IMG/VR virus record: IMGVR_UViG_3300010345_000473
Source of the DNA: an uncultured virus (IMG/VR IMGVR_UViG_3300010345_000473)
Lineage: Duplodnaviria > Heunggongvirae > Uroviricota > Caudoviricetes
Direction: 5' to 3' (one strand)
Length of the DNA stretch: 58,845 bases
Position 1 is the stretch's first letter, and the number at the start of each line of letters is the position of its first letter. Both the position numbers and the translations under genes were made by a program. Positions 3,103-38,920 of this stretch are shown here, piece by piece. The notes under the pieces are model-generated. The model did not search any database and was not told where the DNA came from. It saw nothing but the letters and a program-made list of their open reading frames with translations.

Positions 3103-3594
3103 GTGGCTGCAACTCATCGAGTAAAGCGGATTGTTGTTCAGGGGGATCGTGATGCCAACGCTCCCTTCTTGACGAGTGGATTCCAGCCTCCCCAGAATTG
3201 CAACATGCTTGATGCGTGGACCATTTCCGCGGGTTTCCAGGCATTCGCATCAGGCGGCTCAATCCTGCACAACTTCATCGGCGGCAACGTTCCTGTGGAA
3301 AGCAAGATTCGTATGATCAAGGTGGGATGTAACGAATTCCCGATTTCTCAGTTCACTCTGAGTCCTGTGGCCACACAATGTTGTGATTGTGGCACACGAA
3401 TGATTGGTGAGTATCACGAATGCGAAAAATGCAAAAGCACATCGGTGATGGTGATGGGTCGAATTGTGGGATATATGCGACCCATCTATAAGGGAGCGCC
3501 CAAAGTTGACTCAGACAACTTGTCGGTCTGCGCAGACCGCACATTTTGGCAAAAGGCACGAATCGCTGACTGGGGACGTCGGACGCTCATGTAG
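3103..3594 (+). CDS. nrdD: class III (anaerobic) ribonucleotide reductase, C-terminal glycyl-radical/Zn-ribbon fragment
   Basis: FLTSG, Q..ASGGSILH, CxxCG...CxxC Zn ribbon and glycyl-radical loop RIVGY. Confidence 0.88.
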   Translation: MAATHRVKRIVVQGDRDANAPFLTSGFQPPQNCNMLDAWTISAGFQAFASGGSILHNFIGGNVPVESKIRMIKVGCNEFPISQFTLSPVATQCCDCGTRMIGEYHECEKCKSTSVMVMGRIVGYMRPIYKGAPKVDSDNLSVCADRTFWQKARIADWGRRTLM

Positions 3595-3652: not shown

Positions 3653-4576
3653 ATGAACGCGTCCGAATTGCGATCTGTGTTTCATGATATAATTTCATCT
3701 CAGTATCGATTTCCCATCAGTGCGCATGTTGCACTGTCCACAGCAACATATGCATTCCGAACAATCGATCCAACATATGCCGATCTCTTTGATCTTGTGT
3801 ATGCGGATGATTGTGCGTTTGCTGGGGCACAACACTACGATATGATCATGCATGTCGGCCCACTGGTGGATTGTTTTGTGAAAACTGTTTACAATCGATA
3901 CACCGAGGCCTTTGTGAGCCACACAAAGGATGAGATTGCTCGATATGCTCATCTCATCAGCATGCATGTTCGCACATATGCATACTATCATTTTGTGGCC
4001 GCCCTCACTGCCTCGGTGCTTGAAGAACAATTCGGACGCGAATCATTATTCACATCGTGTTTCAAGAAGCCCGAGCTCAAAGAGATGATGCACAATGCAT
4101 ATGACGATCTCATCGATTTGTTTGATGCTCGGTTGCGCCGTGTTATATTCTACAACATCGCCGAAGACATCAGTTCGGTCAATCCATGGAGCATCCGGCC
4201 CTATACAGATGTGTCCGATCTGACGAACCGATGGAATCTCAAGATCACACAGCTTCCCGTGTTACCAAAATCAAAGGTTGTGGTGTTCATCAACAACAAT
4301 CTGTACAACATGTCGGGTGATGCTGTGGGAACATATACAACCACCACACAACTTCCCACATCTACCGCCTTCATCACATGTTTATCCGAGGACAATACTA
4401 TGACAGTTCTTGCTACAGTAAAACAATGGTCTTCCTCATCAAAACAAAACACAGATGATGTGGCACATGTCAATATCGAAACATTTGATGATAGAAATCT
4501 CGAACCATTCTATGGGTCATTGTACATCTATGATCCAGAATGTTATTTTAATAAACTTACATTATTCACAGCATGA
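3653..4576 (+). CDS. hypothetical protein
   Basis: 307-aa ORF; ATGA overlap with nrdG; no motif recognised. Confidence 0.6.
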   Translation: MNASELRSVFHDIISSQYRFPISAHVALSTATYAFRTIDPTYADLFDLVYADDCAFAGAQHYDMIMHVGPLVDCFVKTVYNRYTEAFVSHTKDEIARYAHLISMHVRTYAYYHFVAALTASVLEEQFGRESLFTSCFKKPELKEMMHNAYDDLIDLFDARLRRVIFYNIAEDISSVNPWSIRPYTDVSDLTNRWNLKITQLPVLPKSKVVVFINNNLYNMSGDAVGTYTTTTQLPTSTAFITCLSEDNTMTVLATVKQWSSSSKQNTDDVAHVNIETFDDRNLEPFYGSLYIYDPECYFNKLTLFTA

Positions 4577-5271
4577 TCTCTGGGAGGCGGCATATTTCGA
4601 TGGCCGATGAACTGACGTCGTTTGTGTGCCCTGTATACTCGCTTTTGGATCGACCTGGGAAATCATCGTTGGTGGTTTATACCTCGTCGTGTAACTGGTC
4701 CTGTTATGGCTGTCACAACATGGCCATTCTGCGATCAAAACCACAACCTCATATTACAAGACAGAAGTTTGTCACATATCTGAGCAACCCACTCGTTCAA
4801 TGTGTGGTTATCTCGGGTGGTGAACCAACATTGCTCGGAGAAGCGCTCATGAGTGAACTTCGATGGATTAGAAGTACATTCCCAAAGCTCCATATCAGCC
4901 TCGACACAAATGGATCAAACCCACAGATGTTGCGGAAGCTTGTGGCACAACAGCTCATCGATTCTGTGGCCATGGACGTGAAGCTCAATTGGTTCGTCGA
5001 ACAGACGTGGATGACCTGGGCCAAGAAACTGCTTGGTTGCCAAACCGTGGATCGAGCTGACATCCTGGAGTCCATGGACATTGTGGCGTCCATCAAGGAC
5101 TCATTGTTCCGTACGGTAAAGTATCCGTTGTTCGAAGAGGACACAACATATCTCTCCGATCTCAAGAATGATGTGGAACACAAATATCCAGAGATTCCAT
5201 ACTATCAGAACCGATATGTGAATACGAGTGTAGGAACGTTGCACAACCCCGCACTCATCGCGGTGGTGTAA
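4573..5271 (+). CDS. nrdG: anaerobic RNR activase (radical SAM)
   Basis: CNWSCYGCHN (CxxxCxxC), ISGGEPTL, LDTNGS, AMDVK; adjacent to nrdD parts. Confidence 0.9.
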   Translation: MISGRRHISMADELTSFVCPVYSLLDRPGKSSLVVYTSSCNWSCYGCHNMAILRSKPQPHITRQKFVTYLSNPLVQCVVISGGEPTLLGEALMSELRWIRSTFPKLHISLDTNGSNPQMLRKLVAQQLIDSVAMDVKLNWFVEQTWMTWAKKLLGCQTVDRADILESMDIVASIKDSLFRTVKYPLFEEDTTYLSDLKNDVEHKYPEIPYYQNRYVNTSVGTLHNPALIAVV

Positions 5272-5304
5272 GAATTCAAATTCATGAAGAGTGGATGTGA
5301 CACC

Positions 5305-6852
5305 ATGGCGACAACTCCTACTGAAAACAAGTATCTGAAAATCATTGATGATTATATTGGACGCGAAGATATCGCTCGACACAACAGCAACCTCATTTAT
5401 TCCCATGCCGCCATGGTGGGCATCATCTCGGGTGAGGTCATCAAAGACTACTGGTTCTCTCGAGTCTATGGAGACTATGCTCGGGCGTTGCATGATGAGG
5501 GATGGATCTACATCCACAACACTTCGGTGCTTGGTGCATATTGCAGTGGGTGGTCCACTCGGGATCTGTGTATCCGGGGACTCGAGTGCACCGAACCAAA
5601 CGCCCCAGCGTATTCTCCTCCAAAACATATCGAGTCGCTCCTTGGGGAAGCAGCAAACTTCATCGCTACGATTTCTCAAGAGATTCATGGTGCGTGTGCG
5701 ATGAACGACATCATTTCGTGTGTGGCATCCTATCTGTACATCGAGGAAACCATCAACAACGTACCAGTCACAGCAAAACGGCTCGAAAACATTTGGCAGA
5801 CGTTCTTCTGCGAGATCAACCTCGCATGGAGATGTGGCAACAGTCCGTTTACCAACATCACCATGACGATTCAGGGGAACGATCCCAACCTGCGGGATGA
5901 GAAGGTGGCCTATGGCGGCAAGTACCTTGACTTCACCTATGGCCAGATTCCACAGGAGTACTATGATCGCACCAACACCGCCTACATCAATGCGTTTGCG
6001 GCGGGCGATCGATATGGCAAACCTTACACCTTCCCGCTCATCACAGTTCAGATTTTCGATTCCACCGATTATGATCATCCTATTTTCAAAATGCTGCTCG
6101 AGAAGATGGATCCGTGGGGCGGAGTCTACATCGACAACTACTGCACGAAACCATTTAACAGCACCGAGCAATCTGCCTTCAAGGAGATCAACAGATTCAT
6201 CACCCCACGGGATGCCACAGCAACACGATCGTTCTGTTGCCGTCTACAGATCTCCATCGACGACATGAAGAAGGTGGGTCGTGGCATTTTCGGCTCCGCG
6301 CCGAAGGTGGGTGGAGTTGGTGTTTTCAATATCAACCTCAACCGAGTCTGTTATGTGGCGCAGGGGAATATGAAGCTCATCAAAGACATGCTTGATGATC
6401 TGCTGGAGATTTCACAATCCCTTGCACAGAAGAAGCGGAAGTTTATTCTCGATCACATGGACCTGTACCCATACTTCAGCAACTATCTGGACAACCTCGA
6501 CACATACTTCAATATCATCTCATGTGCGGGTGCGCACGAAGGGCTGATGTCCATGGGGTATCCAGATGGCTTATCCGATCCCGAGGGTGCCAAGATCGGC
6601 GCGGAGATCGCTGATCACATCAGAACCCGCATCGATATGATGATGACTCGGGATCGGGTTCCTGTTTCCTTTGAGTACGCTCCAGGAGAAACAGCCAACG
6701 TCAAGATGGCTCGGGCGGATCTTCGGTTCCAGGATTGGATCACACGGGGTTGTCCAGACACCGATGAGTTCACATGTTTTCGTTCGGTGATTAAACAGCA
6801 GTATGATGATGGAGTTTTCTTCGACGACATCACGGAACAAGCATCCGTGTAG
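5305..6852 (+). CDS. nrdD: class III ribonucleotide reductase, N-terminal/catalytic barrel fragment (no ATP cone)
   Basis: GWIYIHN, YCSGW, PFTNIT, PYTFPL, RSFCCRL finger loop, APGETA. Lacks the Zn-ribbon/Gly-radical C-terminus. Start at ATG 5305 chosen (ORF track 5284). Confidence 0.9.
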   Translation: MATTPTENKYLKIIDDYIGREDIARHNSNLIYSHAAMVGIISGEVIKDYWFSRVYGDYARALHDEGWIYIHNTSVLGAYCSGWSTRDLCIRGLECTEPNAPAYSPPKHIESLLGEAANFIATISQEIHGACAMNDIISCVASYLYIEETINNVPVTAKRLENIWQTFFCEINLAWRCGNSPFTNITMTIQGNDPNLRDEKVAYGGKYLDFTYGQIPQEYYDRTNTAYINAFAAGDRYGKPYTFPLITVQIFDSTDYDHPIFKMLLEKMDPWGGVYIDNYCTKPFNSTEQSAFKEINRFITPRDATATRSFCCRLQISIDDMKKVGRGIFGSAPKVGGVGVFNINLNRVCYVAQGNMKLIKDMLDDLLEISQSLAQKKRKFILDHMDLYPYFSNYLDNLDTYFNIISCAGAHEGLMSMGYPDGLSDPEGAKIGAEIADHIRTRIDMMMTRDRVPVSFEYAPGETANVKMARADLRFQDWITRGCPDTDEFTCFRSVIKQQYDDGVFFDDITEQASV

Positions 6853-6892
6853 TCTAGACACATATGACACACGAGAAGGGTGGTGAATATGT

Positions 6893-7855
6893 ATGGCTCT
6901 TGATGATGATGTTCTCTCATCGGCAAAAGCAGGTACCGCGGCATCAACCCCGCCACCGAAGTATAGTGGATTCTTTCGGGCACGTGTTGTTGATGTCAAG
7001 GATCCAAAGAAGGCGGGTCGCATTAAGGTCTGGGTGCCGACCCTCATGGAAGGAAAGGTCGATCCCGCTGAAGGTCGATGGGCACGACCGCATTCCATCT
7101 ATGGTGGTGCTACACTGGAACAGGGTGACAAGAAACAGGCCAACACGGCTTGAAAATCTGGTGTGTCCGCCGGTGGCGGCAGTAGCAGTGATGCAGGATC
7201 ATTAACCAGTACTGCAAAGGAACCAGGCGCCGACGACTTCGGGTCCGTACTTATTCCACCACTCGGATCATATGTCTTGGTGTTTTTCGAAGATGAGGAT
7301 CCAGACAAACCGGTCTATGTGGGTGGACTTATCCTCGATGATCCATCCCATATGCCCGTGGAGCAGACTCATGGGAAAGAGTATTGGAAACGACATACTC
7401 TGATCAAGACTCCCACAGCACGAACCATTTTCTTGTCCGATGATGTCGATCTTCCCTGTACAGTGATCACAGGCTGGGATCTGACGCACAAGAAACGTAA
7501 AAACAATGATGATCCCCGTCGTGATCGGAAACGTCGGTTCGATATCTGGGAAAAGAAAAAAGAAGAGTATATGATGCTTCTTGATGAGCTCGAAGATTAC
7601 ATTCTATTCGATGAAGTCAAGAAGCGCATCCGCTTGCAACATCACAAAGGTGCATATGTCGAATATGATCAGCAGGGCAATATTCACATCGAAGCCAGGG
7701 CTGGTGTATTCATCAACTGCAAAGCGGGTGTACACGAAAAGCCACCCATGCCTGGACCACCCCCGCAAGATCCCGCGGGTGGTGGGTGAGGCTGGAGTCC
7801 TCCAAAATCACCAACACCGTCACCATCTCCTGGCGGTGGGTGAGGTTGGAAATAA
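6893..7855 (+). CDS. baseplate central spike gp5/VgrG-like OB-fold protein with three in-frame UGA codons (putative selenoprotein, 320 aa)
   Basis: ORF-track ORFs 6893-7153 and 7163-7789 are in one frame. The OB-fold motifs RARVVDVKDP..GRIKV.VP..WARP and IPPLGSYVLVFFEDEDPDKPVYVG lie on either side of TGA 7151. Further TGAs at 7787 and 7841, then TAA 7853-7855. Confidence 0.8.
7164..7181 (+). promoter_or_regulatory. putative bacterial SECIS for UGA 7151
   Basis: TG(T)CCGCC-GGT-GGCGG-CA hairpin. Loop GGU at +22..+24 from the U of UGA, bulged U at +16. Confidence 0.7.
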
Positions 7856-7874
7856 CGAGCATCGGTGATGCTCG
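7856..7874 (+). promoter_or_regulatory. putative bacterial SECIS for UGA 7841
   Basis: Perfect 8-bp stem CGAGCATC-GGT-GATGCTCG; loop GGU at +24..+26. Confidence 0.65.
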
Positions 7875-7944
7875 ACCAAACATCAATGGGTGAGAGGTCT
7901 CCAAATCTCTCACCCATTTCACATCGAGGTAGGTGTTTCATGTC

Positions 7945-8271
7945 ATGCCACTTCCCATCGCACGCATTGGTGACCTGGCGGCGGGATCCAACTGTTATGT
8001 GGACCCATTGTGCTGTCCACACGATTGGTGTGGACCTATCATCACAGGTGCCACGCGTACTACATGCGAAAATAAAAAGGTAGCACGAGTTGGTGATCTT
8101 GGTGCCTGTTGTTGCCCACATGGTGGGATCTATATCATCGTTAAAGGTGCCACTCGATCGTTTTGTGAGAACCGACCCATTGCCCGTGTTACTGATATGG
8201 TGGTCTGCACAAGATGTGGATCGGTGGGGTTCATCATTTCTGGTGCCACGAGATCGTTCTGTGAAAACTGA
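7945..8271 (+). CDS. PAAR-repeat spike-tip protein, very Cys-rich
   Basis: Three repeats PIARIGD / KVARVGD / PIARVTD, each with I..GATR..CEN; 12 Cys in 108 aa; directly after the gp5-like gene. Confidence 0.85.
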   Translation: MPLPIARIGDLAAGSNCYVDPLCCPHDWCGPIITGATRTTCENKKVARVGDLGACCCPHGGIYIIVKGATRSFCENRPIARVTDMVVCTRCGSVGFIISGATRSFCEN

Positions 8272-8298
8272 CATGCAGAAAGGAGATGACGGATCGAT

Positions 8299-9111
8299 AT
8301 GGCCGATGAAGATATTGTTGCCGCGGTAAATGCGGTTTCTGGCGCAGTTAGTGCAATGCAAAGCGCGCTGTCTGCGTTGCTCGCGTCTATCGATATTCGG
8401 AACGAACACACACACCAACAACATGGTCATGGGTGATCCACAGCTAAACGCTCTTGAAGTGGCGGAGCGCGTGGGTGATCACGCTCATCATCGCCGGCGG
8501 CGGTGATTCCGAAAGCAGATCTTGGTAAAAAGCAACCAGAACATGCGCAGAGTATGTTACCGAATCCAGATCAGGCCAATCTTAACATTCCTGTGGCGCC
8601 TTTCCTGATAAACGAATTCTTTGGTGGGCAGGATGTGAACGATGATGGTCGAATCTATGGACGACATTTTATGTTCATGGAAAATGGCAAGATCCCACAG
8701 ATGCTACTCGATCTTCAAACAACAAATCCATCATGGCCCAACCCAGCACCATCATTTGAAGTGGACTGGGACGACTTTGTCTACTGGACTACAAAGGTGG
8801 CACGTATCCCCGGAGTCATCGGATATCTTGGCTCCACTCGCATCAGTCCAGCGAATCCTTGCATCGAGGAGGCCATTCAACTCGACATCGGTGAAGAGAC
8901 ACCCATATATGAGACGGATAGTTATGGAGTCAAAATCGCATACAGGGCAAAACGAATATCTGAAACGAAGGTTCGATACTTTGAATTCTTTGATGTGGAC
9001 AATGCTGATGGTTCCATTTCCCGGAAGGATTTGTACACTGTGGACTATGTGTGTCAGTATAAGGTGAAGAAACGACGACGCATGCCATGGGAACCCGATA
9101 GCACAACGTGA
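8299..9111 (+). CDS. virion/baseplate-associated protein with three in-frame UGA codons (putative selenoprotein, 270 aa)
   Basis: AAAGGAG RBS then ATG 8299. Reads MADEDIVAAV...HTHQQHGHG-UGA(8434)-STAKRS-UGA(8455)-SGGARG-UGA(8476)-SRSSSPAA and continues in frame into ORF 8503-9111. Confidence 0.7.
8449..8507 (+). promoter_or_regulatory. overlapping putative SECIS hairpins for UGA 8434, 8455, 8476
   Basis: CGCTCT-TGAAGTGGC-GGAGCG (G at +23); GCGTGG-GTGA-TCACGC (GGU at +20..+22); ATCATCGCC-GGC-GGCGGTGAT (GGC loop at +21..+23). Confidence 0.6.
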
Positions 9112-13200: not shown

Positions 13201-15033
13201 CATTATCGGAAACTGTTGCGGGATGCCAAGCAAGCACAGAACTCCTATTTGTCCGATCGATATGAAGTGCTCCAATATGCCTACAAACAGCTGGCCAACA
13301 GCATCTATGGTGTCATGGGGACCTCGGTGTATCGATTGTCGGATAAAACTACCGCAGCAGCGATTACTGGAGCTGGGCGAGAACTCATTCGACTCAGTGC
13401 ACATTTTGCTTCAAGATATATTCAGAAGATCATTGACGAGAAACGACTTGACATCCCATATGATGTGTTTGAATTGAGTGTACCATCTATTGAAGCGCTT
13501 GCAGACATTGCCCAAAGAAAATATGTAATATACGGCGACAGTGTTGTGGGTGATACAACGATTGTAATCAAACGTGCAGACAATACAGTTCATCGTATTC
13601 CAATCAACAGTTTGTTTACACATGTTGATCAAATGTCGACCGACGGCAAAGAGTATTGCTTCCTAGAGGATGTGTACGCTCTTACGAAAGTTGATGACGA
13701 CAATCTCGATTTCCGTAAAGTTCCATATGTTATGAGGCATGCGAGAGGGTCTAAACGATTGTTTGATGTCAATATCACATCTAATTGGAAGGTTGTTGTC
13801 ACAGAAGATCACTCGTTGATCTGGAGGGACACAAAGACAAATGCGGATGTGTGTGGAGCGCCATTAGATACAACATCCGATCGTAAGTTGATCACATACA
13901 CCGACGATCAACATATGTTGTACAGGCTGCCATCAAGTATCACCGAAAGCACAAGAACAGATGAGTATGTGTATGATATCGAAGTTGAAGGCACACATAC
14001 ATTTTTCGCCAATGGCATTCTTGTTCACAACACCGACTCATTGTTTATTAATATAATGCCCGCGGTAGAAGCAGTGTATCCAAACGTTGTGGACAAATCC
14101 GAGAAGTTTCAGAAGGCTTGGGAAATCATCGGATGCATCGGTGATTACATCAACAAGTATATTGTCATCGAGCTTTTGAAACGCAAGGGCATCGATCCTG
14201 AAGATTCGATGAAGGATCATAATTTTAACTTCAAACAAGAAATCGTTATGGCCACGTCGATATTCTTCAATGTAAAGAAACAATATGCGTATCGAGCGAT
14301 TATGGATAAAGGCGTTGCGGTGAACGAACGTGTTATCAAGGGACACGAAGCCCAGAAGTCCGATACACCTCGGGCGATTCGGGGAGCACTCTCGGACCTG
14401 ATCAATTATCTGCTCGACTCCTATGATCCCACACAGATCGCCAGTTCTCAAGCGGGACTTGCGGCCATCTACAACAAGTACTATACTGAGTATGATCGGT
14501 TGCTTGCGGAGGGTAGTGTTTTGGCTGCACGACCGGTTTCTGTGTCTCAGGAGTTCGAAGAGTTCACCACCGCACAGGCCACACTCAAGGGGATGTTGTT
14601 GTATTCGTTGTTGTATGGGTACGAGTTCCGAGCAGGATCGAAGGGGTATCTTTTCTACATCAAACATATCAACTTTGATGCGTTTGGGACCAATGTCATG
14701 ATTCTGTTGGATCAGGCCAAAGCGAAGTACCCCAACTATCCATGGCTCCAACGGATGACTGAACTCGATGGATCTGTGGTGGTCATTCCCCAAGAAACCG
14801 AGCACCTTGATACAAACATCTTTACTGTGGATCGAGCCTATATGTTAGCCAACTTCCTTCAGAAACGGGCGGAAAAAATATTCAATGTTGTTCACATGTC
14901 GGTACCCGGTAGTACACAGTCCACAATGAACTCGTTGCTCTCGTGGGATCAAACTAATGGGTCCACACCGAGAACATCTTCAAAGAAGACGTCCGCGAAA
15001 AAGGTCAGTACTTCGATTCGTATTTGTATGTGA
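10258..15033 (+). CDS. polB: family B DNA polymerase with N-terminal family-4 uracil-DNA-glycosylase-like domain and an intein
   Basis: UDG4: CxxC, GEAP..EE...PFIGRSG, TNTC, HPS. Exonuclease: DIET, GWNVESFD, YNIVDV. Polymerase: DLDATSLYP, KQLANSIYG, YGD/TDS. Confidence 0.93.
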   Translation: MCAKRRRTSDDAPKLQIVGAPPVTPDPSTAPPVRKTSPWVDLRNWMNHPDASVVVNVPIPAKEVLHHSDADLNACVLCEILFNDILMGHALKATYSGYAAKSFALNKYMPQSNRTQDFYNANNDGPTLKPKEWQEIRSRHPELKTTDKASMLRLYTQAELDALRGVVQSCTSKEAHELYRSTFGEEAQSVDVNTRGDLYQSIMASLQFGCKGCSSCKLDASMSQYVVADITQQNADASLKDIRVLFLGEAPATEEIKHRIPFIGRSGDILRGALSVLGIPIENTLITNTCFCFHAPGNKPTPTEIYRCFVQVEAVIKALPNLKVIVPIGGTAMSRLGITTSVLDNVGKVARYNKILVYPVPHPSWLLRTGKGVPELVDAMRGLLPILNEDKSVKVPKDRQFSGDAVLSHLSRNQTGMPIPTQDEGPTEASAITPLYSAPVVYQSPQRIYDIQGVRQTVGTGMAVVGVGKTTNSTAPGYIVFRKGNVKELFYINPMVEYYTSKPGDWASQLNAIEPISNLVPQCVAFDKLRNMQRQHVSNAMACYNSDYNLSTYALTQLKTKYEYVEDESIQPRIWYLDIETEKDAIRVTSESTNVQAKLRLASFFDTYDKAFYVVVVNSNENRGQNISIEPITTTINKNTMEFPVHIERVETDYEAIQWLQKKLIDLDPDLITGWNVESFDMTFLVKRAETLGIILGNKYGKFSFINSKRDKRLLTFVVCDGIAILDYLVLYKYQILKKKETYRLDYITEIELGADKKKDVLEYDHDIMYHQHLNAYVHYNIVDVLRVYELECKLNYITFNVELCRICNIGWSDIFSKIRLIDGIVYQFTLSRGLAAIQKIRPVEAAARGLEDDIPHASESDSYEGASVLEPQPGLYEGAVDLDATSLYPTIMIRYNMLCDTYVGSISPEHATAYLYNPSALPETFTFKNPIGQTVETNALALKEYLTDKILIAEGMIYMKPEKRSSIISEILMYLIGQRAHYRKLLRDAKQAQNSYLSDRYEVLQYAYKQLANSIYGVMGTSVYRLSDKTTAAAITGAGRELIRLSAHFASRYIQKIIDEKRLDIPYDVFELSVPSIEALADIAQRKYVIYGDSVVGDTTIVIKRADNTVHRIPINSLFTHVDQMSTDGKEYCFLEDVYALTKVDDDNLDFRKVPYVMRHARGSKRLFDVNITSNWKVVVTEDHSLIWRDTKTNADVCGAPLDTTSDRKLITYTDDQHMLYRLPSSITESTRTDEYVYDIEVEGTHTFFANGILVHNTDSLFINIMPAVEAVYPNVVDKSEKFQKAWEIIGCIGDYINKYIVIELLKRKGIDPEDSMKDHNFNFKQEIVMATSIFFNVKKQYAYRAIMDKGVAVNERVIKGHEAQKSDTPRAIRGALSDLINYLLDSYDPTQIASSQAGLAAIYNKYYTEYDRLLAEGSVLAARPVSVSQEFEEFTTAQATLKGMLLYSLLYGYEFRAGSKGYLFYIKHINFDAFGTNVMILLDQAKAKYPNYPWLQRMTELDGSVVVIPQETEHLDTNIFTVDRAYMLANFLQKRAEKIFNVVHMSVPGSTQSTMNSLLSWDQTNGSTPRTSSKKTSAKKVSTSIRICM
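13540..14031 (+). mobile_element. mini-intein (164 aa, no homing endonuclease) in PolB motif C
   Basis: Inserted at YGD|TDS. Starts SVVGDT, has block B VTEDHSL and ends YVYDIEVEGTHTFFANGILVHN, followed by Thr. Confidence 0.93.
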
Positions 15034-15050
15034 GAGGGAGGAGCATAATA

Positions 15051-15809
15051 ATGTCTATCACACAGATTGCCTTGGATGTGCTTGAAACTGGATACACCGT
15101 TCAGGGGGAAGGTATCCACATGGGTGTTCCCATGACACTCATCAGAGTGCGGAATTGTAATCTGCATTGCGATTTCTGTGACACAAAAGAAAAGATGGAC
15201 AAGAAGGGTGTACCGTTTCGGTTCTCGGACTATATTGAGTTCATCGACAACCAGCCAAAGAACAGCATCATTCCCACAACGAACGTTATGCTTACAGGTG
15301 GGGAGCCGATGATGTACCCCACTGAGCTCATGGCATTCATCACGCAGTGGTCCATGTACTCTCGGCGTGACTCGATTTGCAATGTTGAAACGAATGGACT
15401 GAATCTGTTTCAGCTCTATATGTTTCTGGAATCGAATCTCCGACGATATCCGAGCCATGTGTACACCATTTCGTGTAGCCCGAAAACCTTTGCGCAACAG
15501 GAGTATAAGAATCTCGCCAACGCGATGCAGCTCATCAAGTACAATGCGGATCCCGAGTATGTCCATAGGATCCTGACATTCAAGCATGTGGTGTCGAGTG
15601 AGATGGCGGAAACGGTGACGCGGACGGTGTGTATGATTCAGAGTGCGCTTCCCGAGCTTCCCACCATTAACAACATTGTTATGCCCATGGGAACCACCGT
15701 CAATGAGATCAATGATGCGATGCCGCATTGTATGGCTCTTGTCCGCACCCATGGATGTCGTATGTCGAGTCGACTGCATATCGTTCACAACGACACCATC
15801 GCTCTGTGA
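15051..15809 (+). CDS. queE: 7-carboxy-7-deazaguanine synthase (radical SAM)
   Basis: TVQGEG.HMG.P..LIR..CNLHCDFCDT, LTGGEP, VETNG, SPK, RLH; GGAGGAG RBS before ATG 15051. Confidence 0.85.
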   Translation: MSITQIALDVLETGYTVQGEGIHMGVPMTLIRVRNCNLHCDFCDTKEKMDKKGVPFRFSDYIEFIDNQPKNSIIPTTNVMLTGGEPMMYPTELMAFITQWSMYSRRDSICNVETNGLNLFQLYMFLESNLRRYPSHVYTISCSPKTFAQQEYKNLANAMQLIKYNADPEYVHRILTFKHVVSSEMAETVTRTVCMIQSALPELPTINNIVMPMGTTVNEINDAMPHCMALVRTHGCRMSSRLHIVHNDTIAL

Positions 15810-15821
15810 TCCAACATCATA

Positions 15822-15856
15822 TCCCCATGGGAGGGATGCGGCTCCTCCCATGGGGA
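15822..15856. terminator. intergenic 13-bp inverted repeat
   Basis: TCCCCATGGGAGG ... CCTCCCATGGGGA. Confidence 0.45.
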
Positions 15857-15884
15857 ATGTGCCGTTCTCGAAGGAGGGACATCT

Positions 15885-17318
15885 GTGGCTACAACGTATC
15901 CAAGCACACCGAGTTCGGGTATTGTCTCCGCGGGTATCGTCACATACCTGAATCGTATGGACTCACTCAGTGGCTGGAATAATCTTCCGAAGCATGATCG
16001 ATTTGAGGATCCTATCAGTCAGCGCATTCACAACATCCTGGAGTGTTATGGGTCCTTTGTCATCAAACCGAGTTTGATCAAAAAGAAGGATTCGTTGCAC
16101 ACCAAGGCCGTGGAGCTTCTTACAGATATCCGATCTCGGATGCCCGCGGAGAAGCATATGTTCATAGACAGCGGTGGGTTCCAGATTGTAGGTGGACGAC
16201 TGCGGGATTCCATCAATGTGGCGCTTCCCAACCTCATCGACATCTACACACGGTTCATTGCCGAGTCCGATCAAACGTTTCCAAACACATCATATTTCTA
16301 TCTGGACATTCCGCCGGTGTTTGGCATCACGCCTTCGGAGTCTCGGACATACATGGACATGTTTCACACCAAGCTCATGGAACGCACTGTGTCAAATGGT
16401 CGACATCGACAACTCTTCTTTATCTACCAAGCAAACTCCCCTATCTCGTTTCGAGTCTTCCGATCCTTCCTCAAGGACAACAATATCGCTTCCCAGCTCG
16501 ATTCGCACAAATGGGCCATGGGTGGTTTAGTGCCTATCAATATGAACGACTTCTCATTGTGGATCCGACCGTATATGATCCCACTGTTTGAAATCATTCC
16601 CCATGAGTATCAATATCTTCGGTCGGGTGGAGAAGTGTGCTATCATGTGCTGGGTGTGAGCAGCATGTTTGACTTCCTGCTGTTCTGCTGGATGATTGTG
16701 TTCAACGAGTATCACAACTTCAATCTGAAGCTGACATTCGATTCTACCACATCAATCTATCTGGCCACGAAGAGTGGGATTGTGCATCACATCGATCCCG
16801 ATACCCAGGCCGTGGTACCTGTTTCCTTTGGATATTCTGAAATTATGAAGTACAACACGAATCGATACAATCGGGATTATATTGCCGACATCCTTAACAC
16901 GGTTCGGACTTCCGTGGGGACAGATGAATCCTATCTGGCGGATCCATCCACGTGGTTCGATGAGAACAATCGATGGACCGCGGGCTTCCTGTGCTCCATG
17001 TGTGCATATGAGTTCTCAGCATACGCTCATGTGTTCCATGTGATGCTTGATCACTTCCGACGGAACAAACTTTGTGTACTCCAGGATGATATGAGGGATC
17101 TGGTGGACATGAGCATCAGCATCCTCAAACAACTGGGTGCCATGCCCAAGGACTTTGCAAGATTCCAGAAAATGACACTCAACTCTTTGATGCGTTCTTT
17201 TGTCGAGTATAAAACCCTCATGACCACTGGGCAACCATCGAAACCCACGGAGCATGTTGTGGATACCACCATGGCAAAGTTTACGTCGCTGAATACCGAT
17301 ATGATGTCCGCCATGTGA
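15885..17318 (+). CDS. TGT-fold guanine transglycosylase, DpdA-like (DNA 7-deazaguanine insertion)
   Basis: FIDSGGFQ, LDIPP, AMGGLVP, HVLGVS, FDST motifs; follows queE. Confidence 0.75.
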   Translation: MATTYPSTPSSGIVSAGIVTYLNRMDSLSGWNNLPKHDRFEDPISQRIHNILECYGSFVIKPSLIKKKDSLHTKAVELLTDIRSRMPAEKHMFIDSGGFQIVGGRLRDSINVALPNLIDIYTRFIAESDQTFPNTSYFYLDIPPVFGITPSESRTYMDMFHTKLMERTVSNGRHRQLFFIYQANSPISFRVFRSFLKDNNIASQLDSHKWAMGGLVPINMNDFSLWIRPYMIPLFEIIPHEYQYLRSGGEVCYHVLGVSSMFDFLLFCWMIVFNEYHNFNLKLTFDSTTSIYLATKSGIVHHIDPDTQAVVPVSFGYSEIMKYNTNRYNRDYIADILNTVRTSVGTDESYLADPSTWFDENNRWTAGFLCSMCAYEFSAYAHVFHVMLDHFRRNKLCVLQDDMRDLVDMSISILKQLGAMPKDFARFQKMTLNSLMRSFVEYKTLMTTGQPSKPTEHVVDTTMAKFTSLNTDMMSAM

Positions 17319-21052: not shown

Positions 21053-21808
21053 TTGAAAATGGAAAAAAAATCTACGAAAAAAATATCTATAAAACAATTA
21101 GAAAAGATATTATCGGAACACATGTTGTGGCGGAAAGGAATAGGCGGATCAAAAGCAAACTTGTCTGGAACAAACTTGTCTAGAACAGACTTGTCTGGAA
21201 TAGACTTATCGGGTGCAGATTTATACGGTGCAAATCTATCAGGTACTGACCTATCATACGCAAATCTATCAGGCGCAGATCTATCAGGCGCCAACCTTTT
21301 CAAAGCCGATTTCTACGGTGCCAACCTATCAGGCGCAAACCTATCAGGTGCACTTTTAGGAAATGCAAAACTGTTCAATGCAAACCTATCAGGTGCGAAT
21401 TTGAAAAATGCGGGTCTGTACAATGCTGATCTATCAGGTGCTGACCTATCAGGCGCTGACCTATCGGGTGCACTTTTAGGAAATGCAAATCTGCACAAAG
21501 CTGACCTATCAGGTGCGAATTTGAAAAATGCGGATCTGTCCCATGCCGACCTATCAGATGTGGATTTGAAAAATGCTAATATGTCTGATGCGAATATGTT
21601 CTATGCCGACCTATCAGGTGCTGACCTACCAGGCGCCAATCTTACACATGCTGATATGCGCAATTCCGATCTTACCAATGCTGTTCTTTCGGGAGCAACT
21701 TTAGATGGGCTGATGCTTTCAGGTGCCAATCTGTCAGGTACTGACATTTTCTTAGCCAATGCCTGCACCACCGATACAATTTCCAGTGCTTCAATAAACT
21801 TTTTTTAA
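21053..21808 (+). CDS. pentapeptide-repeat protein 1
   Basis: Tandem A(D/N)LSG repeats after an 'LEKILSEH.LW' leader. Confidence 0.92.
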   Translation: MKMEKKSTKKISIKQLEKILSEHMLWRKGIGGSKANLSGTNLSRTDLSGIDLSGADLYGANLSGTDLSYANLSGADLSGANLFKADFYGANLSGANLSGALLGNAKLFNANLSGANLKNAGLYNADLSGADLSGADLSGALLGNANLHKADLSGANLKNADLSHADLSDVDLKNANMSDANMFYADLSGADLPGANLTHADMRNSDLTNAVLSGATLDGLMLSGANLSGTDIFLANACTTDTISSASINFF

Positions 21809-21957
21809 ATTTGATTTTCTTAACTTTTGAATCGTTTTTTGGCGGGGCGTGGGCATGGACGTGGTGCTAGGGAGCCGACCACCAGAAATAAAAACAGCAT
21901 AGAAACCGTATGGCCCGAATTGAACAATAACAAAAAACCACAGAGGAGTGTTACATC

Positions 21958-22932
21958 GTGAAGACAATAAGCCCGCAACAGCTAGAAGAAATATTGGCAG
22001 AACACGGAAAATGGCTGGCAGGGGCAGGTGGCAAAAGGGCCGACTTGTCTGAAACAGACCTGTACGGTTCAAATCTATCAGGTGCTGATTTGTCATGTGC
22101 AATTTTGAAGGCGACACACCTGTGTAATGTCAACCTATCAAACGCAAATTTGAAAAATGCGGGTCTGTTCCATGCCGACCTATCAGGCGCTGACCTATCA
22201 GGCGCTGACCTATCGGGTGCCCTTCTACCATTCGCACTTCTTTCCAAGGCAAATCTACCAGGTGCGAATTTGAAAAATGCAAATCTGTACAATGCTAAAC
22301 TATCAGGTGCTGACCTATCAGGTGCCAACCTATCGCGTGCGGATTTGAAAGATGCGGATCTGTCCTATGCGAACCTATCAGGTGCAAATCTGTACAAAGC
22401 TGACCTATCAGGTGCAAATCTATCGGGTGCCAATCTATCAGGCGCTGACCTATTCGGTGCCAACCTATCAGGTGCGAATTTGAAAAATGCGGATCTGTCC
22501 CATGCCAACCTATCACATACGGATCTGTTCCATGCCAACCTATCAGGTGTCAATCTATCAGGTGCGTATTTGGAAAATGCGGATCTGTACCATGCAAACC
22601 TATCAGATGCAAATCTATCAGGTGCAAATTTAAAAAATGCGGTCCTATCAAACGCACGTCTTTCCAAAGCAAATTTATCTGATGCAAACCTTTCAGGGGC
22701 GAATTGTTATCAAACAATTTTTTCCCCTGCCAACTTGCGTTGCACCAACCTATCGGGTGCCAATCTTACACATGCTGATATGCGCAAATCCGATCTTACC
22801 GATGCTGTTCTTTTAGGGGCAACTTTAGATGGGCTGATGCTTTCAGGTGCTAATCTTTCAGGCACTGAAATTTCCTTGGCCAATGCCTGCACCACCGATA
22901 CAATTGCCACCGATACAATTTTCAGTAGATGA
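21958..22932 (+). CDS. pentapeptide-repeat protein 2
   Basis: A(D/N)LSG repeats; C-terminus nearly identical to protein 1. Confidence 0.92.
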   Translation: MKTISPQQLEEILAEHGKWLAGAGGKRADLSETDLYGSNLSGADLSCAILKATHLCNVNLSNANLKNAGLFHADLSGADLSGADLSGALLPFALLSKANLPGANLKNANLYNAKLSGADLSGANLSRADLKDADLSYANLSGANLYKADLSGANLSGANLSGADLFGANLSGANLKNADLSHANLSHTDLFHANLSGVNLSGAYLENADLYHANLSDANLSGANLKNAVLSNARLSKANLSDANLSGANCYQTIFSPANLRCTNLSGANLTHADMRKSDLTDAVLLGATLDGLMLSGANLSGTEISLANACTTDTIATDTIFSR

Positions 22933-22992
22933 CAAAATAAATGTCACATCAACAGTTGGAAAGAAAAGCGGATGCGTAAAAATTAGGGGGCG

Positions 22993-24159
22993 ATGAAAAT
23001 GGGGAAAAAATCTATGAAAAAAATATCCACAAAACAACAATTAGAAGAAATGTTGGCAGAACACAGGTTATGGCAGAAGGGGATAGGCGGATCAAAAGCA
23101 AACTTGTCTGGAACAGACTTGTCTGGAATGGATTTATCTGGAATAGATTTATCGGGGGTGGATTTATTCTGTTCAAATCTATCGGGTGCTGGTTTGGAAA
23201 ATGCAAAACTGTACAAAGCTGGCCTATCAGGTGCAAACCTATCAGGCGCAAATCTATCGGGCGCTGATTTGGAATATGCGGATCTGTCCTATGCAATCCT
23301 GTCCGGTGCTAACCTATCAGATGCACTTTTAGGAAATGCAAATCTGTACAGTGCAAACCTATCAGGCGCAAATCTATCGGGCGCTGATTTGGAATATGCG
23401 GATCTGTCCTATGCAATCCTGTCCGGTGCTAACCTATCAGATGCACTTTTAGGAAATGCAAATCTGTACAATGCAAACCTATCCGGTGCCAATCTATCAG
23501 GTGCTGTTCTTTTAGGGACATGCCTGGTAGGGGCCAAATTTTCAGATTTGAAAAATGCGGCCCGGTCCCATGCCGACCTATCAGGCGCTGACCTATCATG
23601 CGCTGACCTATCAGGTGCCTTTCTATCATACGCATCCCTTTCCAAGGCAAATCTATCAGGTGCCAATCTATCAGGTGCGGACCTATCAAACGCAAATTTG
23701 GAAAATGCGGCCCTGTCCCGAGCCAACCTATCAGGTGCTGACCTTTCGGGTGCACTTTTAGTAAATGCAAAACTGTCCCATGCTAACCTATCAGGCGCGA
23801 ACCTATCGGGTGCCGTTCTCCCATTAGCACTTCTTTCCAAGACAAATCTATCAGGTGCGAATTTGAAACATGCGGATCTATCCCAGGCCGACCTATCAGA
23901 TGCGGATTTGGAAAATGCTGATCTGTCTGATGCACGTATGTTCTATGCCAACTTGCGTCGCGCCAACCTATCAGGCGCGAACCTATCTGGTGCACTTTTG
24001 GAAAATGCGGATCTGTACCATGCAAACCTAGTAGATGTGAATCTATCGGGCGCAAATTTGGAAAATGCGGATCTGTCCTACGCCTACCTATCAGGTGCAA
24101 ATCTATCAGGGGCGAATTTAGAAAATACGGATCTGTCCCATGCGGTTATGGCATCATGA
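22993..24159 (+). CDS. pentapeptide-repeat protein 3
   Basis: A(D/N)LSG repeats; N-terminus like protein 1. Confidence 0.92.
   Translation: MKMGKKSMKKISTKQQLEEMLAEHRLWQKGIGGSKANLSGTDLSGMDLSGIDLSGVDLFCSNLSGAGLENAKLYKAGLSGANLSGANLSGADLEYADLSYAILSGANLSDALLGNANLYSANLSGANLSGADLEYADLSYAILSGANLSDALLGNANLYNANLSGANLSGAVLLGTCLVGAKFSDLKNAARSHADLSGADLSCADLSGAFLSYASLSKANLSGANLSGADLSNANLENAALSRANLSGADLSGALLVNAKLSHANLSGANLSGAVLPLALLSKTNLSGANLKHADLSQADLSDADLENADLSDARMFYANLRRANLSGANLSGALLENADLYHANLVDVNLSGANLENADLSYAYLSGANLSGANLENTDLSHAVMAS
23231..23470 (+). repeat. exact 120-bp tandem duplication (40 aa)
   Basis: 23231-23350 is identical to 23351-23470. Confidence 0.9.
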
Positions 24160-27923: not shown

Positions 27924-28769
27924 TTACATCGACCCTGGCGTTTCTAAGACCGACGCGAGTTGTTGAATCTGCATCCGCATCTCTGGGGGAGCTTCTTGAT
28001 AAGCAGGATCCGCAGAAATCTTCTGAAGCATCTGGATGGCGCGAGATGCATCGGTTTGAATATTTTTCACCATGCGGTTGATCCTGGATGAAATGCCAGG
28101 AGTTGCAAGAAGATCCTCCGCGCTCTGCCCGGCTTCTGCCAGAAGCATCGATACTGCGTTCATGGCTCGTTCCATTCGGTAGCTTTCCTGAATTATATGC
28201 GCAGAGAAATCTGGAATATACGCCGGCATATCATCAGATTCGGCGACCCCCTGTTGCTTGTTCATCTTATCCCGATGCTTTTTCCATGCGTAAAATGCCG
28301 CAGCGAGTCCGCCCGCGGCGACGGCAGCAACGCCAACACGAGCCCAACTTCCAAGACCGACATAATGCAAAATATTACTTTTGTCAAATGCTTTATCGAG
28401 GTTGGAAAACCATACTCCTACGTTAGACACCCATTGCTGAAGCGTCATCTTGATCTTATCGAAAAGAGGTGTGGATATATCGTAACCATACCTATTGGCA
28501 TCATTCTCCAGCCGGCGCCTCTCTAACGCATCAGACCGACGAAGGCTCCTATATCGATCGGCTTGCATCGTACCATAGGCGGCTCGGATACCCTCTAACC
28601 CATCAGACTGCGCAGGGCTCTTATAATCGACTGGCATCGTACCATAGGCGGCTCGGATACCCTCTAACACACCAGACGGCGCAGGGCTCTTATCGGCTTG
28701 CATCTTATCCAAGACGGCTCGGATACTCTCTGACCCATTTCGACCGGTTCTAATGTTGAGGAAACCCAT
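27924..28769 (-). CDS. putative virion protein, family A, with N-terminal repeats
   Basis: Family A TM motif plus AYIPDF; imperfect EGIRAAYGTM repeats. Confidence 0.7.
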   Translation of the reverse strand: MGFLNIRTGRNGSESIRAVLDKMQADKSPAPSGVLEGIRAAYGTMPVDYKSPAQSDGLEGIRAAYGTMQADRYRSLRRSDALERRRLENDANRYGYDISTPLFDKIKMTLQQWVSNVGVWFSNLDKAFDKSNILHYVGLGSWARVGVAAVAAGGLAAAFYAWKKHRDKMNKQQGVAESDDMPAYIPDFSAHIIQESYRMERAMNAVSMLLAEAGQSAEDLLATPGISSRINRMVKNIQTDASRAIQMLQKISADPAYQEAPPEMRMQIQQLASVLETPGSM

Positions 28770-28792
28770 TTTTAAAATCCTCCTTAGTATTG

Positions 28793-29284
28793 TTAAGCTT
28801 CTTGATCTAACATCTGTGATGCTTGCTGCATTTGCATAACAAGCTCTCTGGGCGCGTTTTTGATATCGGGATCATTGAGTGCTCTCTTGATGTCCCGTTT
28901 TCCCAATCCAACCTTTGCTTTAATAGACGCAACGATTGACTCGATTTTGTTAACAAATCCCGGAGATGTGTTGTCCGGGACATCTCCCGCTTCGCTTAAC
29001 ATACGAAGCATGGCATCAATTTGTTCCATCTCCACCAAAATATGCCCAGAAAAATCAGGAATATATGAAGCGTTGCTTAATTCAACAGAGCGTTGTTCAT
29101 CGGACTTGTTTGCATTGTGTTTTTTCCAAGCATAATACGCTGCCGCAAGAGCACTCGCCCCAACCGCCGCGATACCCAACCGTCCCCAGTTTCCCAACCC
29201 GATTTTGTGAAGAATGTTACTTTCGTCGAACTGCTTAGTGAGTGCGTTTTGGGCGCTCGTTTTCCAGGAATTTAATGTGTTCAT
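28793..29284 (-). CDS. putative virion protein, family A
   Basis: GLGNWGRLGIAAVGASALAAAYYAWKK; NASYIPDF. Confidence 0.7.
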   Translation of the reverse strand: MNTLNSWKTSAQNALTKQFDESNILHKIGLGNWGRLGIAAVGASALAAAYYAWKKHNANKSDEQRSVELSNASYIPDFSGHILVEMEQIDAMLRMLSEAGDVPDNTSPGFVNKIESIVASIKAKVGLGKRDIKRALNDPDIKNAPRELVMQMQQASQMLDQEA

Positions 29285-29595
29285 AACTGACTGCCAAAAT
29301 GACTGATTTGCTGCCTTAGCACCACGAGATCGTTGTCTGAAAAGAATCGCGGCGTGAGTGCTTCCTGGTCCTTGAGATAGGCGAATATCTTGTGGAGCCC
29401 AAACAACCCAACCGTTGCCAGTGCTACGGTTTGAAGTCCACCCATCGATGCAAGGATAGGATTTGTGTTGATGGATGCCACCGCTTCTGCGATTTCGGTT
29501 CCGATAGGTGCACTCACCGAAGTGATGGTGTCCACCACGGATGTGACTATCGACGGAGACGTCGTTGGTCCAGATTCATGGATTCGATATATCAC
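29281..29595 (-). CDS. putative virion protein, subfamily B
   Basis: IHES leader; ILASMGGLQTVALATVGLFGLHKIF; ATGA-coupled to the next gene. Confidence 0.6.
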   Translation of the reverse strand: MIYRIHESGPTTSPSIVTSVVDTITSVSAPIGTEIAEAVASINTNPILASMGGLQTVALATVGLFGLHKIFAYLKDQEALTPRFFSDNDLVVLRQQISHFGSQL

Positions 29596-29622
29596 ATTGG
29601 ATCGCCTGCGATGTAGAATCCA

Positions 29623-30405
29623 TCATGCTTGTGTTGGAACTGGCTTTGTGGGATCTGCTCCCTTAGCTCGGGCAAGAACCGCTGCAAGCTGGCGTACTTG
29701 TTGTTGAATCTCTGGAGGCGCTTTCGCAAACATCGGATCTCTCATCATCTGATCAGCCATGCTTGCCGCCGAGTTCGCCTTGCTGGCAATCTGACGTGTC
29801 ATCATCTCGCCCTTCTGTTGGAGCATTTTTTGTTTTGCTTCGTCCACTTCGCCCATTTCTTCGACTTCAGTCAGAAGCATACAGAATCGATCAAACGCAG
29901 CAGCATAGCGATCGGCTTCGATGAGGATTTCGTTTGTATAGTCGGGAACGAATGACGCGTTTTGTGCCTGTTGTTTTTGTTGCTGCTCCTCTTTTGCCGC
30001 CTTGTTCTTCCACATTTTATATGCGAGAGCGAGTCCAGCGAGACCAGCCGCGGCAGCTCCAACACGACCCCAACTGGTGAGCCCAAGAGATTTTAAGATT
30101 GGGCTTTCAAATGATAGAAGATTCTTGCCCAACCACGACTTCTTACCTGTCCAATCGGAAACTGTCTGATTAAGTCTTTCTACCCATGGATATTTTGCAA
30201 TGTTAGACATTGTTCTTGATGCTTGACCAAACAACGAGAGATCGTCGGCGTCTTCTTCGTTCAATTGTCTTATATCTCTATATCGCAAAATGTCACCGCC
30301 TATCATATACGATTCATATTTTTCATATTGTGATGGGGTGTGGAACATAGTCCACACCCCATTGTGATTCGTCGTTCTCTCACTAAGCAGCGTTCCGTTC
30401 CTCAA
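29623..30405 (-). CDS. putative virion protein, family A
   Basis: GLTSWGRVGAAAAGLAGLALAYKMWK; NASFVPDY; start uncertain. Confidence 0.7.
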   Translation of the reverse strand: MRNGTLLSERTTNHNGVWTMFHTPSQYEKYESYMIGGDILRYRDIRQLNEEDADDLSLFGQASRTMSNIAKYPWVERLNQTVSDWTGKKSWLGKNLLSFESPILKSLGLTSWGRVGAAAAGLAGLALAYKMWKNKAAKEEQQQKQQAQNASFVPDYTNEILIEADRYAAAFDRFCMLLTEVEEMGEVDEAKQKMLQQKGEMMTRQIASKANSAASMADQMMRDPMFAKAPPEIQQQVRQLAAVLARAKGADPTKPVPTQA

Positions 30406-38276: not shown

Positions 38277-38410
38277 GTTTTGGAACTCCGAATCGCCGGA
38301 GCCCAGCGAACATATTAGTGATTCGGAGAACACTGATTTTTGGGATTGTGCGCGGGAGAGTTTTGGCAATGGGCGAGCCATATTCACTAATTCTAAAGGA
38401 GGAGTATAAG

Positions 38411-38845: not shown

Positions 38846-38859
38846 AAGCTTCCCAGGTC

Positions 38860-38901
38860 TGGGACGGAGTTAGCCTAACTCCGTCCCATTTGTTTTTTTT
38901 T
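38860..38901 (+). terminator. rho-independent terminator after the Ubl gene
   Basis: TGGGACGGAGTTA-GCC-TAACTCCGTCCCA followed by a T-run. Confidence 0.85.
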
Positions 38902-38920
38902 GTGAAAGGTGGGATTTTAC

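Follow-up and report, generated by a model that had tools for sequence, protein, structure and literature searches.

An in-frame UGA inside the OB domain of a predicted phage tail spike: probable read-through or a spike of two chains

How is a structural protein made when a stop codon lies inside one of its folded domains? The question is raised by a 58,845-nt stretch of DNA from an uncultured tailed virus of the Caudoviricetes (IMG/VR IMGVR_UViG_3300010345_000473), the whole of which is called the window here. On its plus strand, the frame from 6893 to 7855 contains TGA at 7151-7153 (codon 87), 7787-7789 (codon 299), and 7841-7843 (codon 317), and is closed by TAA at 7853-7855. An earlier note on this DNA had read the frame as a gp5/VgrG-type spike gene whose first UGA is passed by selenocysteine insertion. 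Judged from the sequence and a structure model, 6893-7789 is best explained as a single gene that encodes the central membrane-piercing tail spike, composed of an OB domain and a beta-helix and capped by a PAAR protein. The spike is probably made either via read-through of UGA 7151 or as two chains.

The two sides of TGA 7151 carry complementary parts of one domain. The N piece (6893-7150) matches the Phage_base_V OB domain of Pfam (PF04717) over profile positions 2-43 of 75 (E 3.7e-7) and the C piece, taken from 7163 to 7786, over positions 41-74 (E 2.7e-4), while the whole spike protein with X at the TGA reaches E 2.7e-12. Likewise, the PHROGs annotation that spans the TGA is "baseplate hub subunit and tail lysozyme". 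The AlphaFold2 model, which draws on an alignment of 61 sequences, takes X for the TGA, and has a mean predicted local distance difference test (pLDDT) score of 82.7, shows a single five-stranded OB barrel followed by a beta-helix. Strands 28-34, 44-47, and 62-66 precede the TGA and are modelled at pLDDT 90-97, strands 127-132 and 140-145 follow it, and the residues that hold the TGA (71-110) form a block of pLDDT 48-58 that is predicted to be disordered. The claim of the earlier note that an intact OB fold requires sequence from both sides of the stop is thereby borne out by the two profile halves and by the modelled barrel, in that the structure predicted for the read-through product is one OB domain built across the TGA.

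The identity of the protein as a central spike is supported by structural comparison. A Foldseek search against the PDB gave 28 chains at E <= 0.001, and each of those listed is a spike or a baseplate hub from a contractile injection system or a phage. The top match is the spike of the Algoriphagus injection system (7aef_q, E 1.6e-11), and further matches include the VgrG, PVC, and AFP spikes, P1, the R2 pyocin spike, phi92 gp138, T4 gp5, and the phiKZ spike. The marks by which a central spike may be recognised, namely the PF04717 OB domain, a predicted fold of OB plus beta-helix, and a PAAR gene next door, are all found at this locus. The known central spikes (T4 gp5, P2 gpV, phi92 gp138, phiKZ, and the C-terminal part of VgrG of the type VI secretion system) likewise combine a PF04717 OB domain with a beta-helix, and the PAAR tip gene directly downstream is a further shared feature. 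Unlike the spikes of the T4 gp5/VgrG type, the window spike has neither a lysozyme domain nor a gp27-like domain. It also differs from the known spikes in its OB loop, which carries a disordered insertion of ~31 residues and an in-frame UGA, both absent from 60 aligned relatives. We know of no precedent for a spike split inside its OB domain or for an OB fold made of two chains. The cultured phages are not close, the best matches being Bacillus and Listeria phage spikes at 25-34% identity.

The TGA at 7151 is real. Two IMG/VR contigs (L001 and L002) are identical to the window over 6860-7900, all three TGAs included, and three metagenome contigs, L011 and L013 over the full stretch and L012 over part of it, give the same translation. 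The spike stretch is also found in 20 listed sequencing runs dated 2016-2025, six of which are RNA libraries. They come mainly from activated sludge, in which the phage is common, with some from wastewater, digester or biogas samples and one from soil; nine of the 20 are flagged as a possible source of the window DNA, and several may belong to one campaign. No differing letters, gaps or joints occur in 12 contig pieces from four of the runs (two RNA libraries and two DNA), and one RNA-library contig covers the entire spike stretch, with the qualification that rare variants drop out of contigs and that RNA libraries may hold DNA. An assembly error, which the earlier note had itself raised as a possible objection, is ruled out by the agreement of five other assemblies and four runs, and editing or splicing is ruled out with it. 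Similarly, a deletion between the GGTGG repeats at 7103 and 7172 (found by eye), which would remove the TGA in frame, was considered and rejected, as no joint was seen. The repeat scan found no repeats of 11 nt or more flanking the insertion.

In the relatives of this spike the gene is whole. All 60 aligned relatives are single uninterrupted genes, and in each of seven related loci (L003 and L014-L019) the spike is one uninterrupted open reading frame (ORF) of ~250-260 residues that ends in TAA, L016 being cut by the contig end. Four of these loci (L003 and L017-L019) have NrdG- and NrdD-like genes upstream, the same as the window. The arrangement that would have undone the one-gene reading of the earlier note, homologues encoded as two separate genes, is therefore not what these relatives and loci have. 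The segment between the conserved motifs W-A-x-P and G-S-x-x-I-P is 73 residues long in the window and 32-59 in the 60 relatives, and the alignment column of TGA 7151 is a gap in every one of them. Hence, by this alignment, the TGA sits in the ~31-residue insertion, which is specific to this lineage.

A diverged relative carries its break at the same place. A full HMMER scan with the family profile retrieved P0141, a protein of 85 residues found on five contigs, which is identical to the N piece at 62 of 85 positions (73%; 78 of 85 positives). It ends at the same alignment position, as ...EQGDKKQANST against ...EQGDKKQANTA in the window, and the 24 residues preceding the final two are all identical, the remainder of the piece having diverged. 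The C part of this lineage is represented by three variants of 170 residues (P0161, P0162, and P0165). P0162 is identical to the window C part from 7277 onward at 154 of 170 positions (91%; 166 of 170 positives) and has the same end, ...PAGGG; the longest source contigs of P0141 and P0162 are both 3,993 bp. The lineage is known from called protein records, so that the comparison takes in the N fragment to its end and the C part from the 7277 equivalent, with the identity of the stop codon and the 38 codons up to that point lying outside it. Within this range, the protein alignments indicate that both halves of the spike are under purifying selection in two lineages and that the position of the stop is unchanged. 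The two signs looked for in a read-through gene, a stop at the same codon in a diverged relative and protein-level constraint downstream of it (here from 7277 onward), are thus both present.

This conservation bears on the idea that the spike gene is broken or dispensable, or that only its C part matters, and that another spike gene lies elsewhere in the genome. CheckV puts the completeness of two related IMG/VR records at 29% and 46%, and the available records suggest a large phage of at least ~92 kb with a genome of ~121 kb, of which ~29 kb lies outside the scanned DNA; few structural genes are recognisable in the window and its left flank. A second spike gene could be placed there, but the changes between the lineages are mostly conservative in both halves, no change is seen in the sequence across runs dated from 2016 to 2025, and the partner PAAR gene is intact, which makes a broken gene very improbable.

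Rather, it is proposed tentatively that UGA 7151 is read through in a gene-specific manner with an ordinary amino acid. Most ribosomes would stop at the UGA and release an 86-residue fragment, and a fraction would decode it as an ordinary amino acid by a near-cognate or suppressor tRNA, not as selenocysteine, and continue to UGA 7787 to give a spike of 298 residues. A virion should need only three copies of the spike, so a low yield could suffice. The division of the OB domain between the two pieces, the single barrel predicted by AlphaFold2, the single-gene relatives, the conserved stop, and the lack of a Shine-Dalgarno sequence at GTG 7163, the candidate restart codon, argue together for a read-through that may well take place, though the case falls short of an even one. 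The anti-Shine-Dalgarno duplex at this GTG is worth -2.1 kcal/mol, whereas the median is -8.3 over 63 genes and -3.2 for the background.

A likeness to such a mechanism is found in phage Q-beta, whose coat gene ends in a leaky UGA that yields A1, a minor and essential virion protein. What would be shared is the decoding of a UGA at low frequency for a structural protein of low copy number. However, the Q-beta genome is RNA, and read-through there lengthens an already complete protein at its C-terminus, whereas the stop considered here interrupts a folded domain in a large double-stranded DNA phage, where the short product would be an incomplete OB domain.

Several observations weigh against read-through. 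No stimulatory RNA structure is found after TGA 7151 (z 0.08 and -0.73), and neither the window nor the 32.8-kb left flank yielded a suppressor tRNA. TGA is the main genuine stop, closing 40 of the 72 window ORFs and 23 of the 31 ORFs of the left flank, so efficient suppression would be costly to the phage. The base at +4 is A, which is also present at 5 of 36 genuine TGA stops, and the context is not distinctive. A canonical GTG lies 9 nt past the stop and was used by every gene caller for the window lineage. In addition, the P0141 lineage is compared by its proteins, its stop codon and next 38 codons being out of view, and the evidence as a whole consists of sequence and contigs, those from RNA libraries possibly being derived from DNA.

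The GTG at 7163 is also the basis of a different account, in which UGA 7151 terminates, the same ribosome reinitiates at the GTG, and chains of 86 and 208 residues co-fold non-covalently into one OB domain, joined through two floppy tails supplied by the insertion. This GTG, 9 nt from the stop, is the only canonical in-frame start after it, and gene callers at several sources call the 208-residue protein from it. The break falls in what is predicted to be a disordered surface loop, insertion and stop go hand in hand and are confined to this lineage, and elsewhere in the genome TGA acts as a genuine stop. Moreover, 4-base overlaps of stop and start are common in the genome, which indicates that translational coupling is in use. 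Against these points, the C fragments of the diverged lineage (P0161, P0162, and P0165) are all called from the equivalent of TTG 7277, which lies inside OB strand 4, and so GTG 7163 does not seem to be kept as a start there, although three calls out of three reflect the behaviour of a gene caller and not the DNA. A C fragment begun at TTG 7277 would lack the conserved ...DDFGSVLIPPLGSY strand, and the nearly invariant family residues G117 and P122 fall between TGA 7151 and 7277. No Shine-Dalgarno sequence precedes GTG 7163, though reinitiation does not strictly depend on one, and all 60 relatives are single chains. A spike of two chains is held to be the main and a serious alternative to read-through, though a less likely one.

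Selenocysteine was the decoding that the earlier note had in mind, with SelB and a selenocysteine tRNA (tRNA-Sec) acting on UGA 7151 through the hairpin at 7167-7179, which it likened to the selenocysteine insertion sequence (SECIS) of E. coli fdhF. The offsets given for the fdhF element are G23, U24, and a bulged U17, against which any match in geometry is a putative one. The hairpin itself is present: it begins 16 nt past the UGA, its arms CCGCC (7167-7171) and GGCGG (7175-7179) enclose a small G-containing loop, GGT (7172-7174), at positions 22-24 from the U of the UGA, and its 45-nt local fold of -13.6 kcal/mol has a bulged U, at position 16. What finds no support is the hairpin as a signal. 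It is no stabler than shuffled sequences (z -0.73; 45 of 200 shuffles fold equally well) and is simply spelled by Ala-Gly-Gly-Gly codons. In the 91-nt context (z 0.08) the minimum-energy fold pairs the bases otherwise and the hairpin is absent, and Rfam has nothing near the hairpin at E up to 10 and nothing across the window at the gathering score.

The protein alignment gives selenocysteine no better footing. At least in the approach described in PMC1088965, searches for selenoprotein genes demand homologues with Cys at the UGA, and here the alignment at residue 87 offers neither Cys nor any other residue, the column being a gap in 60 of 60 relatives. The site is predicted to be a disordered loop of a structural protein and not a redox site, and tRNA-Sec is not among the tRNAs found, all of which are in the left flank. 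Genes of the fdhF type share with the window spike an in-frame UGA and a small G-containing hairpin at a similar distance, but the spike lacks Cys homologues, its hairpin is at chance level, and it is structural, not redox-active. Selenocysteine decoding of UGA 7151 is unlikely, and a SelB-dependent route through this hairpin is given only the faintest chance.

Other ways past the stop within the same mRNA fare no better. A frameshift at TGA 7151 was rejected: the +1 frame meets TAA at 7203-7205 (ORF 6864..7205), the -1 frame also closes soon at a TAG (read by eye), and the C part continues in frame 0, so that one shift alone would not restore the gene. A ribosome hop in the manner of T4 gene 60 would have peptidyl-tRNA-Ala leave GCU 7148 and land on a downstream Ala codon. 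The stop does lie directly after such a take-off codon, the 24 residues before the last two are fully conserved between the lineages as a nascent-peptide signal would be, and in-frame GCC and GCA codons are available at 7169, 7193, 7214, and 7229. Yet bypassing in T4 gene 60 uses matched take-off and landing codons, and no matching GCT codon is found in 7154-7290, nor is there significant structure at the take-off site; a hop is hardly to be expected.

A change of the code throughout the phage, as in codes 4 or 25, is excluded because TGA is its main stop. A greedy gene call under code 11 gives 72 ORFs over 94.7% of the window, and with the 31 ORFs of the left flank (the record behind L002) TGA terminates 63 of 103. 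Reading the other TGA stops through yields runs of up to 522 codons free of TAA and TAG that enter confirmed downstream genes; for example, 3653-4576 is extended by 180 codons into the radical-SAM gene 4573-5271. No Pfam domain is gained across the TGA in 12 other read-through constructs. Each of ThyX, the pentapeptide proteins, DUF4376, and the QueE-like protein stops at its own TGA, and the PAAR match extends by two residues past X113 on read-through with a worse E-value. Such long stretches are no evidence of coding, since TAA and TAG are scarce in every frame (0.6% and 0.4% of window positions over all frames, against 2.1% for TGA). The tRNA scan found no tRNA in the window and five clustered ones in the left flank (Met, Gln, Pro, Thr, and Ser), with no tRNA-Sec and no UGA suppressor among them, the scans covering 91.6 kb of a genome put at ~121 kb.

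A suppressor could nevertheless be supplied in trans and late in infection, by the remainder of the phage or by the host, and decode UGA efficiently in the spike gene (one to three UGAs) and in a second unit at 8299-9111 (three UGAs). This unit lies beyond the PAAR gene, which shares its frame and in which the anti-Shine-Dalgarno duplex at ATG 7945 is -13.1 kcal/mol. It has the same layout as the spike gene, with a short ORF behind a strong Shine-Dalgarno sequence (8299-8436, 45 codons, -10.6 at ATG 8299), then TGAs, then a long ORF in the same frame that starts without one (-1.7 at GTG 8503 and -0.3 at ATG 8554). Its TGAs at 8434, 8455, and 8476 fall within 22 codons of a Gly/Ser-rich stretch (...GHG-x-STAKRS-x-SGGARG-x-SRSSS...), and three UGAs so close together would be passable only under efficient suppression. 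From its layout, 8299-9111 is a possible second interrupted gene, although PHROGs, Pfam, phage records, and the ESM Atlas gave no homologues by which a single gene could be confirmed, and an overlapping ORF (8330-8506), which ends in a GTGA overlap with GTG 8503, offers an alternative route by coupling.

Phages that switch code late in infection are described by Borges et al. (bioRxiv 10.1101/2021.08.26.457843), and the ~29 kb outside the scanned DNA could hold a suppressor. The recoded phages of that report have many recoded late genes, carry suppressor tRNAs, and are depleted in the recoded stop. What the window phage would share with them is a late structural gene with TGA in frame, and perhaps another such gene in the same module. 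However, here TGA ends 63 of 103 ORFs, no suppressor tRNA is found in 91.6 kb, and one gene is affected, perhaps a second. The 12 other constructs gain no domain, and the intervening PAAR gene itself ends in a genuine-looking TGA, after a complete domain and three repeats. A late suppressor in trans is therefore improbable. Hardly less doubtful is the narrower proposal that UGA is sense-decoded specifically in the baseplate module, once in the OB loop of the spike and three times in the linker of 8299-9111, without depletion of the codon; if true, such gene- or phase-specific recoding would act as a gate on making the cell-puncturing device or fix its copy number.

The interrupted spike gene matters beyond this phage in that the rule by which an ORF equals a protein fails here, an essential structural domain being interrupted by a stop that is conserved between lineages. 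Either a double-stranded DNA phage relies on UGA read-through for its spike, or two chains come together to form an OB fold. If read-through takes place, it would resemble that of Q-beta A1 and yet operate within a folded domain, in a genome that uses UGA as its main stop. Either outcome would bear on how phages control the copy number or the timing of baseplate parts. Gene callers fragment such structural genes, and in this case pieces of 86, 170, and 208 residues are recorded as separate proteins.

The later UGAs of the frame call for a different explanation. The spike gene most likely ends at UGA 7787, because the diverged lineage ends likewise at ...PAGGG, more distant relatives end ~20 residues earlier at TAA, and terminator-like hairpins follow TAA 7853. 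A long isoform made by reading through 7787 and 7841, as the earlier note had allowed, accordingly finds no support, and the 21 open codons after TGA 7787 are not beyond chance, TAA and TAG being rare. The repeated GGG-TGA-GW motif which that note had pointed out does stem from a real 19-nt direct repeat (7778-7796 and 7832-7850; 17 of 19 identical, 54 nt apart). The 8-bp hairpin with a GGU loop that it had attached to the last UGA also exists, at 7856-7874, but it is placed after the TAA as one of a terminator-like pair. The pair (7856-7874 and 7885-7918) is well above chance (z -6.52; 0 of 200 shuffles fold as well), and the terminator scan detects the first hairpin on the minus strand only. 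Taken as a whole, the split gene and its stops hold as they had been described, but the hairpin after TGA 7151 and the open stretch at the C-terminus do not hold as signals above chance.

Also considered and set aside was a +1 shift at GGG-TGA 7784-7789, which would lead into a frame rich in His (..NHQHRHH..); that frame is open to 7868, as expected by chance, and nothing supports the shift. GGGTGA is locally enriched, with six sites in 7123-8473 out of 21 on the plus strand of the window, and resembles the Shine-Dalgarno core GAGGTGA found ahead of many genes here. The longer GGGTGAG occurs three times, at 7784, 7838, and 7888, and in a 161-nt fold (z -4.56) the copies lying upstream are paired to CUCUCACCC in the second hairpin, a hint of alternative pairings. 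The coordinates of these features are collected in Table 1.

Table 1. Features of the spike gene and the genes next to it (window coordinates; anti-SD, anti-Shine-Dalgarno)
Feature	Coordinates	Strand	Evidence or remark
Shine-Dalgarno region of the spike gene (GAGAAGGGTGGTGAATA)	6873..6889	+	anti-SD duplex -12.9 kcal/mol, beats 89% of 63 genes
Spike gene N part, 86 codons: N-terminal tail and OB strands 1-3	6893..7150	+	PF04717 2-43/75, E 3.7e-7
Lineage-specific loop insertion holding the TGA, residues ~71-111	7103..7225	+	pLDDT 48-58; longer than in 60 relatives
In-frame TGA, codon 87, context GCT TGA A	7151..7153	+	identical across assemblies and runs
Spike gene C part: loop remainder, OB strands 4-5, beta-helix	7154..7786	+	PF04717 41-74/75; AlphaFold2 strands 127 to 267
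GTG, candidate restart codon	7163..7165	+	sole canonical in-frame start between TGA 7151 and TTG 7277
Hairpin CCGCC-GGT-GGCGG, spelled by Ala-Gly-Gly-Gly codons	7167..7179	+	forms in 45-nt local fold, z -0.73
TGA, most likely true end of the spike gene	7787..7789	+	relative lineage ends likewise at ...PAGGG
Two copies of a 19-nt direct repeat, each with in-frame GGG TGA GG	7778..7850 (7778-7796, 7832-7850)	+	repeat scan
Two tandem terminator-like hairpins 3' of TAA 7853	7856..7918 (7856-7874, 7885-7918)	+	z -6.52
PAAR spike-tip protein	7945..8271 (ORF listed from GTG 7933; ATG 7945 has a Shine-Dalgarno sequence)	+	PF05488 E 7e-13; three internal repeats; ends in TGA
Possible second interrupted gene	8299..9111	+	45-codon ORF, TGAs 8434, 8455, and 8476, then 202-codon same-frame ORF

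The gene content of the phage includes pieces of a multisubunit RNA polymerase, topoisomerase II, and DNA ligase, together with a DNA polymerase of 1,591 residues, ThyX, and a UvsX-like recombinase. Genes like those of RNA polymerase beta/beta' are broken into several pieces, a trait also of jumbo phages, at two loci to the left of the window (L020 and L021, record G003); two adjacent pieces in the same frame, with a TGA and 33 nt between them, correspond to successive parts of phrog_24349. Genes of the 7-deazaguanine (queuosine/archaeosine-type) pathway, QueC-, QueD-, and QueE-like, lie at window 15024-17318 and 50202-50885 and at 5004-6209 of L021. The QueE-like gene is followed by an ORF of 477 residues in the same frame, of no known function, and a Vut_1 (YhhQ-like) transporter gene is also present, the QueC- and QueD-like genes being in the left flank.

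Upstream of the spike, the gene for the anaerobic ribonucleotide reductase NrdD is in two pieces that stand in swapped order (window 3103-3594, 4573-5271, and 5284-6852). The C-terminal piece (Pfam NRDD 437-546 of 562) lies upstream of the N-terminal piece (2-430 of 562), with a 307-residue ORF of no known function and an NrdG-like radical-SAM gene between them, and loci L017-L019 share the arrangement of NrdG and the N-terminal NrdD piece.

Elsewhere in the window, three adjacent genes at 21053-24159 encode pentapeptide-repeat proteins of 251, 324, and 388 residues (Pfam Pentapeptide, E down to 2.6e-101). On the minus strand at 27924-30405 there are three adjacent paralogues with the motif NILHxxGLGxWxRxGxAAV...AAxYxWKKH, which is membrane-segment-like, and neither PHROGs nor Pfam assigns them to a family. 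A ubiquitin-like conjugation set occupies 37461-41845, with a ThiF/E1-like gene (37461-38276), a weak JAB-like match (38909-39724), and Prok-E2_D (41006-41845), and the translated ORF 39728-40408 contains a perfect triple tandem repeat of the 13-residue unit STDPTYAYISDVV.

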